Under the pieces are notes generated by a model. The model was not told the origin of the DNA, ran no database searches, and was given only the letters and a program-made list of their open reading frames with translations. A stretch of 28,377 bases of DNA from a virus (Duplodnaviria; Heunggongvirae; Uroviricota; Caudoviricetes). Below, in pieces: positions 7,584-9,933 of the stretch. The position numbers were made by a program, and so were the translations under genes. Positions within the stretch are counted from its first letter, which is position 1; each line of letters starts with the position of its first letter. The DNA lies in IMG/VR virus record IMGVR_UViG_2675903575_000014, positions 1 through 28,377 of that record; one strand, given 5' to 3'.

Positions 7584-7654
7584 CTGACAATAGCCATATC
7601 GAATCACTTCCGGCAACTCGTGAGTAAAAAGATTCGGTATCAGAAGAGGTGAGT

Positions 7655-8674
7655 ATGGCTAACGCTTGGCTCAGATTATGGCATGACATGCCAAATGACC
7701 CTAAGTGGCGAACAATTGCCAGGGTGTCAGGGCAGCCAATTGCAACAGTGATGGCAGTGTATATCCACCTCCTGGTGAGCGCGTCACGAAATGTCACGCG
7801 AGGTCACATTGATGTCACGACAGAAGATTTGGCAAGTGCGCTCGACGTGACAGAAGAGGTAATTGATTCAATTTTGCAGACGATGCAGGGGCGGGTACTT
7901 GATGGTGATTTAATCACTGGATGGGAAAAACGCCAGGTACTGAAAGAGGACAATGGCAACGTTTCACAAACCGCGAAATCCCCGGCAGAGCGCAAGAGAG
8001 CGCAGCGCGAGAGGGAAAAATTACGAAAACAGAATGAGGGGTGTCACGACGAGTCACGCATATGTCACGACATGTCACGACGAGTCACGACAGATAAAGA
8101 TACAGATAAAGAATTAAACCCCACACATAACGCGCGCGTGCGCGAGAGAGCTACGACCAGTGAGTCGAACGGTACGCCATCGCAGACACCGGAGCCCGAA
8201 TATCTGGACGGCATGAGCGAACCCATCGGGAAATTTCCGATGACCGATGGCTGGCATCCGTCGCCGGATTTTCGACGACGGGCTGCTCTGTGGGGAGTGG
8301 CTCTGCCTGAGCCGGAATTTACACCAGCTGAATTTGCAGCCTTCCGGGACTACTGGGCAGCGGAGGGGAAAGTGTTCACGCAGATTCAGTGGGAGCAGAA
8401 ATTCGCCCGTCACGTAAATCACGTCAGGGCGCAGGTTAAACCAGTCAGCAAGGGGGTAAACCATGCAGCAGCACCAGGTGGCACCGCATCACGAGCAGTT
8501 CAGGAAATTCGGGCAGCACGTGAGCAGTGGGAACGTGAAAACGGATTTATCAGCGACGGAAACGGCCTGGAAGCTGTGGGAACTCATGGGGGAGGTTTAT
8601 TCGAACCGCTGGACCCAGAAGAACGGGGCCGCACCTTCGAAGCTCTGGATTGCACAGATTGGCGCGATGACTGA
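7655..8674 (+). CDS. Replication initiator (O-like replisome organiser with DnaT-like C-terminal domain)
   Basis: ATG at 7655 with GAGGTG SD. N-terminal MANAWLRLWHDMPNDPKWR... resembles phage replisome-organiser N-domains; C-terminal PEFTPAEFAAFRDYWAAEGKVFTQIQWEQKF resembles DnaT-like domains. Contains two iteron clusters. The last ~70 codons overlap the P-like gene in another frame. Confidence 0.75.
   Translation: MANAWLRLWHDMPNDPKWRTIARVSGQPIATVMAVYIHLLVSASRNVTRGHIDVTTEDLASALDVTEEVIDSILQTMQGRVLDGDLITGWEKRQVLKEDNGNVSQTAKSPAERKRAQREREKLRKQNEGCHDESRICHDMSRRVTTDKDTDKELNPTHNARVRERATTSESNGTPSQTPEPEYLDGMSEPIGKFPMTDGWHPSPDFRRRAALWGVALPEPEFTPAEFAAFRDYWAAEGKVFTQIQWEQKFARHVNHVRAQVKPVSKGVNHAAAPGGTASRAVQEIRAAREQWERENGFISDGNGLEAVGTHGGGLFEPLDPEERGRTFEALDCTDWRDD
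7783..7819 (+). repeat. Iteron-like direct repeats, cluster 1 (four GTCAC(G/A) copies at 10-bp spacing)
   Basis: GTCACG at 7783, 7793 and 7814 and GTCACA at 7803, one helical turn apart, inside the O-like gene. Confidence 0.45.
8043..8094 (+). repeat. Origin iterons, cluster 2 (five GTCACG(AC) copies at 10-11-bp spacing, followed by an AT-rich stretch)
   Basis: GTCACGAC at 8043, 8064, 8074 and 8084 and GTCACGCA at 8053, then AT-rich cagataaagatacagataaagaattaaa. This is the classic lambdoid ori-within-O arrangement. Confidence 0.6.
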
Positions 8675-9128
8675 GCAGCAAATCCGTCAGGTCTGCCGCC
8701 AGTGCATGGACCGCTGCCGGACGGGTGAAACATGGCCTCCGGACCTGGCTGAGTTTGTGGCGCTGATTTCGGAGAGTGGGGCAAATCCATTTGGTCTGAC
8801 GGTGGATGCTGTGATGGAGGAGTACCGCCGCTGGCGCAATGAGTCCTGGCGATACGACGGAAGTGATAAGTACCCGTGGTCTCAGCCTGTGCTGTATCAC
8901 ATTTGCCTCGAGATGCGTTCAAAGGGGATTGAGCGCCAGATGACCGAAGGGGAGTTAAAACGGCTTGCAGAATGGCAACTGACGAAATGGGCAAAGCATG
9001 TTGGTAATGGCCTGAGCATTCCGCCAGTCCGGCGACAACTGGCAGCACCAAAACGCCCGTCGGGACCAACGCCAATTGAGTTGCTGAAACAGGAGTATGA
9101 ACGCCGGAAAGCGGCTGGTTTTGTTTGA
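8463..9128 (+). CDS. Replication protein P-like (helicase loader family, 221 aa)
   Basis: AAGGGGG SD then ATG at 8463. Residues about 40-150 align by eye with lambda P (lambda ...EIRRQWVLAFRENGITTMEQVNAGMRVARRQ... vs here ...[31 protein letters not shown]...; lambda YPWKSNAHYWL vs here [11 protein letters not shown]). Confidence 0.7.
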
Positions 9129-9162
9129 GTTGAGAAGTAATTTTTACCGGGAGGAAATTTTA

Positions 9163-9933
9163 ATGGAAACCGTTTTTGATGCACTGAAAGCAATGGGAAA
9201 AGCCACGTCGGTAGAACTGGCTGCGCGACTTGATATCAGTCGTGAAGAGATACTGAACGAGCTGTGGGAACTGAAAAGAAATGGCGTCGTTGATAAAACT
9301 GGTCACACCTGGTTTCTGGCTGGCGAAGGTGAATCCGGGGTAACCGAAGAGCAGCCAGCACAATCTGAAGTACCGGATGTGCTAACCGGGGTGGTCGAAC
9401 AAAAAGTTACCGCTGACATGATGATTGAGTTTATCGGTCAGGAGGGGGCTAAAACGTGTGAGGAACTGGCGAGTAAGTTCGGTGTCAGCACTCGCAAGGT
9501 TGCTTCCACGCTGGCGGTAGTAACCGCAACGGGGCGGCTGGCACGCGTTAATCAGAACGGTAAATTTCGTTACTGCCTGCCGGACGGTAATTTACCAGCA
9601 GAGCCGAAAGTTGTATCGGTAGCGAAAACACCTGGTAAAGGCTTTCCTCAGCCAGCCGGTTTTGCGTTACCAGTACAGGACGCGGCAACACAGGAAGAAA
9701 TTAAAACAGAAACTGTGGCGGACCTTGTGCAGTCACTGCCATCGTTCACTGAAACGCGAGCGAATGGCCTGATTTTACCATCGCTGCATATGGCAAACCG
9801 TGAACTGCGTCGGGCGAAAAGTCATGTCCAGAAGTGGGAGCGAGTCTGCGCCGCGCTGCGGGAGCTGAACAAGCACCAGGATATTGTCCGACAGATTGTC
9901 GATTCCTCCAGTCGTATTGTGTCGGAAAAGTGA
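9163..9933 (+). CDS. Hypothetical protein with tandem winged-helix-like segments (256 aa)
   Basis: GGGAGGA SD before the ATG at 9163; two helix-turn-helix-like segments ([26 protein letters not shown] and [22 protein letters not shown]). Confidence 0.6.

Follow-up and report, generated by a model that had tools for sequence, protein, structure and literature searches.

We have analyzed the replication region of a 28,377-nucleotide (nt) stretch of Caudoviricetes DNA (IMG/VR record IMGVR_UViG_2675903575_000014, positions 1 to 28,377; here called the window), in which a replication initiator gene reads far into the gene that follows it, P, which encodes a helicase loader of the lambda P family. 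Comparison with related loci indicates that the two genes very probably form a genuine, evolutionarily maintained same-strand overlap, in which about 210 nt carry the final 70 codons of the initiator together with the initial 70 codons of the loader, with P starting at the ATG at position 8463. An original prediction, made from the window alone, had reported this overlap and offered three explanations for it: that the C-terminal 70 codons of the initiator are dispensable, that P initiates at an internal ATG at 8667, or that the region is genuinely dual coding. Our data favor the third explanation; its weakest part is the selection acting at the amino acid level on the last 40 or so codons of the initiator.

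The predicted extent of the overlap, 212 bp and out of frame, was borne out by a check of the open reading frames (ORFs) and the sequence (Table 1). P lies in the +1 frame relative to the initiator, or O, frame [(8463 - 7649) mod 3 = 1], and the last base of the initiator stop codon is the second base of P codon 71. The stops described in the other two frames are present (TAA at 8415 in the P frame and TAA at 8437 in the third frame); there is, in addition, a closer P-frame TAA immediately upstream, so that ATG 8463 is the earliest possible start of the P ORF. The Shine-Dalgarno (SD) sequence in front of this ATG had been called strong, and its predicted pairing with the 16S 3' end is indeed -11.8 kcal/mol. 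One detail was wrong: ATG 8667 and the initiator stop do not form an ATGA junction but overlap by 8 nt (ATGACTGA).

Table 1. Features of the initiator-loader overlap (window coordinates)
Feature	Position	Strand	Remarks
Replication initiator gene ("O-like" by position only)	7649..8674	+	341 aa from GTG 7649
Initiator stop TGA	8672-8674	+	
Lambda-P-family helicase loader gene P, full form	8463..9128	+	221 aa
Overlap, probably dual coding	8463-8674 (212 nt)	+	O codons 272-341 and P codons 1-70
Overlap part 1, O-frame constraint dominant	8463..8551	+	Proximal segment of O tail; P aa 1-29 (variable, predicted disordered)
Overlap part 2, P-frame constraint dominant	8552..8666	+	Predicted P helices aa 29-54 and 60-67; O tail segment ending LDCTDWRDD
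Shine-Dalgarno AAGGGGG for P	8450..8456	+	Inside initiator ORF, 6 nt before ATG 8463
P-frame TAA	8457..8459	+	Bounds the P ORF
In-frame ATG, M42	8586..8588	+	Candidate secondary P start
In-frame ATG, M69	8667..8669	+	P start in RefSeq/PGAP and GenBank for E. coli relatives (153 aa)

The arrangement is widespread. The module was found in 1,301 of 5,426 complete Escherichia coli genomes and in at least 557 IMG/VR stretches, and 34 loci came from a scan in which each species was represented by one genome. Twenty-two of these were combined with the window and with five closely related E. coli and phage sequences into a set of 28 loci from about a dozen genera of Enterobacterales (Escherichia, Salmonella, Citrobacter, Enterobacter, Klebsiella, Pluralibacter, Phytobacter, Kluyvera, Scandinavium, Pectobacterium, Erwinia, Serratia, and Limnobaculum). 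In all 28, both frames are open, the frame relation is +1, and the initiator reads past the first ATG of the P frame, which lies 149 to 221 nt upstream of the initiator stop. All 69 distinct sequences of the E. coli clade have the initiator TGA at the same position, counting two that show it at 8669 owing to an upstream 3-nt in-frame deletion, and so do 20 of the 28 diverged loci. The original claim that the overlap is not a frameshift artifact is therefore upheld by its presence in the 1,301 E. coli genomes and the 28 diverged loci.

By family profile, P is a helicase loader of the lambda P family, predicted to bind and load the host helicase DnaB. It matches Pfam PF06992 (59.1 bits; cutoff, 26; residues 57 to 188) and phrog_109, "P-like helicase loader" (residues 18 to 220; E = 1.7e-62), and a profile search of the PDB returned lambda P (E = 9e-6). 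Full-length alignments (100% of the query) were obtained with orthologues of 215 to 223 residues whose identity was as low as 49%. In an AlphaFold2 model of P (mean predicted local distance difference test score [pLDDT], 66.8), residues 1 to 29 score below 50 and appear disordered, and eight helices follow, of which two fall within the overlap. The top Foldseek match of this model was a full-length lambda P chain from a DnaB complex (9oa1_Z; 222 columns; E = 1e-4; template modeling [TM] score, 0.37). In lambda P, residues 1 to 29 make up domain I, a disordered N-terminal lasso, and residues from about 30 to 119 make up domain II (PMC12661323); its own Pfam domain begins at residue 38. The layout predicted for P, in which the N-terminal segment is disordered and helical domains come after it, may correspond to that of lambda P. 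The earlier claim of an alignment between lambda P and the overlapped stretch holds at the level of profiles and fold (Pfam from residue 57, PHROG from residue 18, and the 222 Foldseek columns) but not in pairwise BLASTP, where the alignment runs from residue 86 onward; the BLASTP comparison was consequently dropped as support for the overlap.

The initiator has an N-terminal replisome-organizer-like part, a DnaT DNA-binding domain (Pfam PF17948; 62.9 bits; cutoff, 25; residues 196 to 262, nt 8234 to 8434), and a 70-residue C-terminal tail (residues 272 to 341). It matches PHROGs 1408 and 3992 (replication initiation/primosomal protein; E = 1e-109 and 2e-56, respectively). The NCBIfam DnaT equivalog gives it a partial match of 95 bits against a cutoff of 201; it is therefore not DnaT itself. 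The label "O-like" in the original prediction can be kept in a positional sense only, since BLASTP against lambda O gave nothing below an E value of 2, there was no match to PF04492 (Phage_rep_O), and the protein carries a DnaT domain instead.

Several lines of evidence point to ATG 8463 as the most likely start of P, served by a strong SD sequence of its own inside the initiator ORF. This ATG is kept in 28 of 28 loci, although the O-frame residue that contains it varies (H, N, or Y); it is thus the ATG, and not the O residue, that selection conserves. SD strength was scored as the predicted duplex energy with the 16S 3' end, for which the background mean is -2.9 kcal/mol. Over the 28 loci, the mean energy is -9.5 kcal/mol for this first start (M1), -5.4 kcal/mol for M42, and -3.8 kcal/mol for M69, and a GGAGG-like sequence precedes the first P-frame ATG in nearly all of them. 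When the long-form orthologues of P were aligned, down to 49% identity, residues 36 to 68 (AWxLWExMGEIYSNRWTxKNGAxPSxLWIAQIG) were among the best-conserved stretches of the protein, and W39, W50, K53, N54, G55, P58, and W62, all encoded within the overlap, were invariant. The TGG codons in this stretch are invariant, and the base that precedes them is variable.

Initiation of P solely at ATG 8586 (M42) would shorten the overlap to 89 nt and leave 123 nt of the P frame upstream untranslated. This codon is ATG in all 28 loci, its SD-like energy is somewhat above background strength, P residues 1 to 35 are poorly conserved, and the Prokaryotic Genome Annotation Pipeline (PGAP) places the start there in Salmonella, Klebsiella, Citrobacter, and other orthologues (180 to 181 residues). 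However, M42 lies within the conserved motif, which explains its invariance without a start function, and the upstream residues W36, L38, and W39 are conserved with a P-frame pattern (TGG fixed, preceding base variable). The upstream ATG, with its much stronger SD sequence, is kept in all loci and the P frame is open from there in every lineage; furthermore, the PHROG loader profile aligns from residue 18 and the first predicted helix begins at residue 29. We consider exclusive use of M42 quite improbable; as an additional internal start, ATG 8586 is possible. Still less probable is that P starts at ATG 8667, with the long P ORF a product of chance and the overlap a trivial 8 nt. That start is the one given by RefSeq/PGAP and two phage records in GenBank, and so for all close relatives (153 residues), and the BLASTP alignment with lambda P lies entirely downstream of it. 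Against it, the codon is CTG, TTG, TTC, or CTC in 5 of the 28 loci, whereas M1 is conserved; its SD energy is at background level; seven invariant and more than 30 conserved residues lie upstream; and the substitutions upstream fall predominantly at P codon position 3. Judged by the model, a 153-residue product would be without counterparts of domain I of lambda P and of the first helices of domain II (PMC12661323). Start calls for P orthologues of 140, 153, 180, and 221 residues show that the annotation is inconsistent: other pipelines call proteins of 215 to 223 residues, and some records have 140. The option of an 8667 start is thus unlikely to describe the main start of P, and the RefSeq form of the loader appears to be too short by 68 residues in relatives from E. 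coli (as in each of the five RefSeq loci of E. coli that we inspected); in other genera, the apparent loss is about 41 residues.

Constraint on the two frames was assessed by synonymous recoding of one protein, with the other frame scored for openness, in the window and in 15 lineages thinned below 80% identity. With the P protein kept, the O frame stayed open in 3.9% of recodings for the window and in 0.6 to 12% for the 15 lineages; it is actually open in 15 of 15. With the O protein kept, the P frame stayed open in 36% of recodings for the window and in 16 to 61% for the same lineages, and again all are actually open. As a control, the same relative frame in the nonoverlapping part of P contains 1.1 to 2.8 stops per 35 codons versus 0 to 0.07 in the overlap. 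Variable columns make up 24% of the overlap versus 36% of the flanking single-coding DNA (P = 0.0014).

The pattern of substitution suggests that selection is divided along the overlap, with the first 90 nt or so under constraint mainly for the initiator tail and the next 115 nt or so mainly for the loader, the initiator frame being constrained there too, detectably but less strongly. In part 1 (8463 to 8551), 10 of 12 substitutions among close relatives fall at O position 3 (P = 5e-4), as do 15 of 23 variable columns in the 69 E. coli-clade sequences; in part 2 (8552 to 8666), 13 of 16 substitutions fall at P position 3 (P = 1e-4), as do 17 of 26 variable columns. The switch in the dominant frame at about 8552 is significant (Fisher P = 0.0016). 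Across genera, the O tail is conserved in part 1, where the P N terminus is variable (O-frame identity, 0.47, versus P-frame identity, 0.37), and O position-3 variability there is 0.43 versus 0.57 (P = 0.007). In part 2, it is P that is conserved, and the O tail retains only the motif G.DG.NLFEPLD.EER...D..D; the 4-fold sites of the O frame are almost frozen in this part (0.12 versus 0.57). The silent sites of P also carry a signal. In residues 36 to 69 they are skewed toward G (0.52 versus 0.34), with AAG used at a frequency of 0.81 versus 0.39 elsewhere, TCG at 0.84 versus 0.35, and GGG at 0.57 versus 0.30, and the skew persists after thinning below 80% identity (GGG, P = 5e-6; TCG, P = 5e-4). 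Read in the O frame, these G-ending codons give Glu and Gly, and they run opposite to the usual A/T-rich gene starts. Analysis of synonymous sites, which had been suggested as a check on the overlap, showed that these P silent sites are less variable than those elsewhere in P (0.48 versus 0.58; P = 0.03), and in the 69 E. coli-clade sequences 45% of them are variable, versus 67% elsewhere (P = 0.015).

A number of observations weigh against dual coding and should temper our conclusion. Translation of both frames is deduced from comparison alone, and the signals of the secondary frame in the overlap are modest. The poor conservation of P residues 1 to 35 means that it is the conserved ATG, the SD sequence, and the open frame that argue for their translation, and an open P frame at a single locus is not improbable (16 to 61% of recodings). 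The lineages are not fully independent, so that combined probabilities are overstated. The P model is of modest confidence, as its mean pLDDT indicates, and the Foldseek TM score to lambda P is 0.37. The last 40 or so O codons are weakly constrained, most changes in 8552 to 8666 being nonsynonymous in O; a column test of O-frame identity there against the control frame gave a value modestly above it (P = 0.056); and two lineages (L029 and L036) end the O tail 10 to 20 codons sooner. These last points, and the fact that no Pfam or PDB relative of the tail was found, speak for a distal tail that is a tolerated, functionless read-through, with P alone under selection in 8552 to 8666 and the O frame incidentally open. 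We regard this explanation as unlikely. It has to account for 15 of 15 thinned lineages with an open O frame when about 4% of synonymous recodings of P leave it open and the control frame is interrupted by stops, for the strong bias toward G-ending codons and the reduced variability at P silent sites, and for the survival of the motif DG.NLFEPLD.EER even in the shortened tails.

Other ways out would be an error of sequencing or assembly that shifted the frame, decay of the gene into a pseudogene, or programmed frameshifting that yields an initiator-P fusion; together we rate these as the least probable explanations, close to negligible. Prophage genes do often decay, and two database entries could be read as fusions: a protein, P0091, joins a DUF1376/DnaT body to P, and phrog_15931 spans both proteins. 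However, the frame relation is identical in the 69 E. coli-clade sequences and the 28 diverged loci, P has its own conserved SD sequence and ATG, and a -1 slip from the O frame enters the third frame, with stops at 8521, 8536, and 8668. No heptamer of the form X_XXY_YYZ was found in either frame of the overlap. P0091 (333 residues) was rejected as a natural fusion: an internal deletion has removed the whole overlap and joined ALPE directly to SGANPFGL, and the protein is probably encoded by a decayed prophage copy. The PHROGs v4 family phrog_15931 (482 positions; "unknown function") is matched by the initiator over positions 1 to 347 and by P over positions 259 to 482; it seems to merge the two overlapping genes, probably via fused or frameshifted members.

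We return to the dual-coding reading and to the tail that it assigns to the initiator. On its own, the O tail matches the phage initiator PHROGs 3992 and 1408. Its motifs are found on initiator bodies that carry a DnaT domain, Phage_rep_O (L027), or HTH_36/DnaD_N (L028) or that have no Pfam match (L029 and L032), and the tail is always found with this P subfamily. In locus L010, which has a DnaT-type initiator and a lambda-type P, the initiator and P overlap by 29 nt, and homology to the window initiator ends at O residue 268, just before the SD sequence of P. The occurrence of the same tail on unrelated bodies, together with this divergence point, indicates that tail and loader gene move together. 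Pfam and PDB searches with an alignment of the tail gave no credible relative, the sole PDB match having an E value of 0.4, and a database search with the 80-residue tail alone returned nine partial E. coli fragments and was uninformative. A resemblance between the end of the tail, LDCTDWRDD, and the lambda O C terminus (LDLTNTDWIYGVDL) was not relied on, as it is absent from the diverged members. The frame kept open against expectation, the O-type substitutions in the first half, and the motifs that recur on unrelated initiators all favor the view that the tail is not simply dispensable, contrary to one of the options originally offered.

One explanation for this pattern, which we put forward tentatively and judge to have somewhat less than an even chance of being correct, is that the overlap is a portable interface cassette: a loader-recruiting tail encoded in an alternative frame of the N-terminal region of the loader, which would have arisen by overprinting of an ancestral lambda-P-type gene. 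The alignments attest the co-transfer of tail and P and the unrelated initiator bodies; the contact between the tail and P (or between the tail and DnaB) and the origin by overprinting are what we infer from them. In 8552 to 8666, the O tail, laid over the ancestral P domain, is probably the younger reading. If the cassette explanation is correct, the two sides of a protein contact are inseparable by recombination, and any initiator body that gains the loader, be it of the DnaT, lambda O, or DnaD/HTH type, also gains its cognate tail.

In the reading that we favor, P most probably initiates at ATG 8463 from an SD sequence within the initiator ORF, giving a 221-residue loader, and the initiator reads on through the start region of P to the TGA at 8672. 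With the tail physically inside the loader gene, both are inherited as one recombination module, and the upstream initiator body, whichever it is, acquires the tail that belongs to this loader. In lambda, the C-terminal domain of O recruits the P-DnaB complex, and the N-terminal lassoes of P have been proposed to contact O (PMC12661323). By analogy, recruitment of the loader-DnaB complex may be the role of the tail in the initiator, and the overlap may keep two interacting parts genetically linked. The burial of the P ribosome-binding site in a translated ORF may also limit synthesis of P, which as a DnaB-sequestering protein is potentially toxic (PMC3640518).

Mosaic phages need compatibility between initiator and loader during the shuffling of modules, and a tail encoded inside the loader gene would secure it. 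In the annotation of bacteria and phages, long same-strand overlaps are usually dismissed as start codon errors; here, in a rare case, comparison of relatives gives the long overlap good support and indicates that it is the reference annotation that is in error. The arrangement also lends itself to experiment: certain single-base changes abolish one reading but are synonymous in the other, which makes the initiator tail and the loader N terminus separately testable. Both overlapping genes in phages and modules of the O/P type are familiar; however, our literature searches found no description of this initiator-loader overlap, and a conserved tail-to-head dual-coding segment of about 210 nt that moves as one cassette appears to be new.

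A close parallel is the lambda O-P pair. As in lambda, the initiator directly precedes a PF06992 loader of similar length (221 residues here, 233 in lambda) and possibly similar layout, the initiator gene contains probable iterons, and the two proteins concerned, the C-terminal part of the initiator and the loader, are known interacting partners in lambda. Unlike lambda, where the overlap is 4 nt (ATGA), or its relatives, where overlaps are 4 to 29 nt and the initiators end in ..NTDWI.GV.., the overlap here is 212 nt; this initiator is not a homologue of lambda O, and its 70-residue tail has no lambda O counterpart. Lambda-type initiators of differing bodies (lambda, L004, 1560 to 1586; L010; and L037 to L045) share the ending (I/V/L)D(F/W/L)(N/T)NTDWI.GV, and the codons of this end motif (..ACGGGGTG..) double as the SD sequence of P, a miniature version of dual sequence use.

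The neighbors of the two genes in the window, a CI-like repressor gene, a Cro-like gene, and genes for YdaT and the DUF1627 protein YdaW, identify the region as a Rac-type prophage early region, and close relatives are annotated as Rac-type phages. The ydaS-ydaT-ydaU-ydaV-ydaW region of the Rac prophage of E. coli K-12 likewise has a repressor, a Cro-like gene, YdaT, an initiator, a loader, and the DUF1627 protein YdaW. However, its loader, YdaV, is an ATP-binding, DnaC-like protein whose gene lies 6 nt from ydaU with zero overlap, and YdaU is barely similar to the initiator of the window. YdaU was rejected as a reference for the normal end of the initiator, being too divergent to align and paired with a different type of loader.

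The classical long same-strand overlaps of phages include A/B/K and D/E of phiX174 and Rz/Rz1 of lambda. As in these, two proteins are encoded on one strand in different frames, with asymmetric constraint and with one reading probably younger than the other. The classical cases, however, are embedded genes or pairs not known as binding partners, whereas here the tail of one gene overlaps the head of the next, the lambda counterparts of the two are physical partners, and the shared segment is transferred as a unit among different initiator genes. Overlapping genes have been the subject of reviews (PMC8227390 and PMC2268670).

The start of the initiator gene also deserves comment. Its ORF is listed from GTG 7649, but ATG 7655 is probably the true start because the N terminus of relatives is conserved as MAN(A/S)WLRLW (seen in L029). 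Direct repeats that contain GTCACG (TGTCACGnnnnGTCACG) form two clusters within the gene, at 7783 to 7822 and 8042 to 8098, and are followed at 8090 to 8112 by a tandem pair of ACAGATAAAGA. These repeats resemble probable origin iterons beside an A/T-rich element, comparable to the lambda origin inside O. A mosaic junction inside the initiator gene, at about 8092 to 8112, coincides in position with this repeat and A/T-rich region: phages Evi, Tritos, vB_EcoS-640R1, and others match the window over 7600 to 8112 only, and Rac-SA53, PPompW, and Stx2a phages match it only from about 8092 or 8204 on.

Two further observations concern annotation. The DNA of "Actinobacillus phage vB_Apl-pPE4" (L003; PP818812.1) is 94% identical to this E. 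coli Rac-type replication module, and the assignment of PP818812.1 to Actinobacillus pleuropneumoniae as host looks doubtful. Downstream of P, the DUF1627 (YdaW-like) ORF is listed at 9097 to 9933, and a start at ATG 9097 would overlap the P gene by 32 nt; in RefSeq relatives, this ORF starts at the equivalent of 9163 (METVFDAL...), which leaves a 34-nt gap after P.

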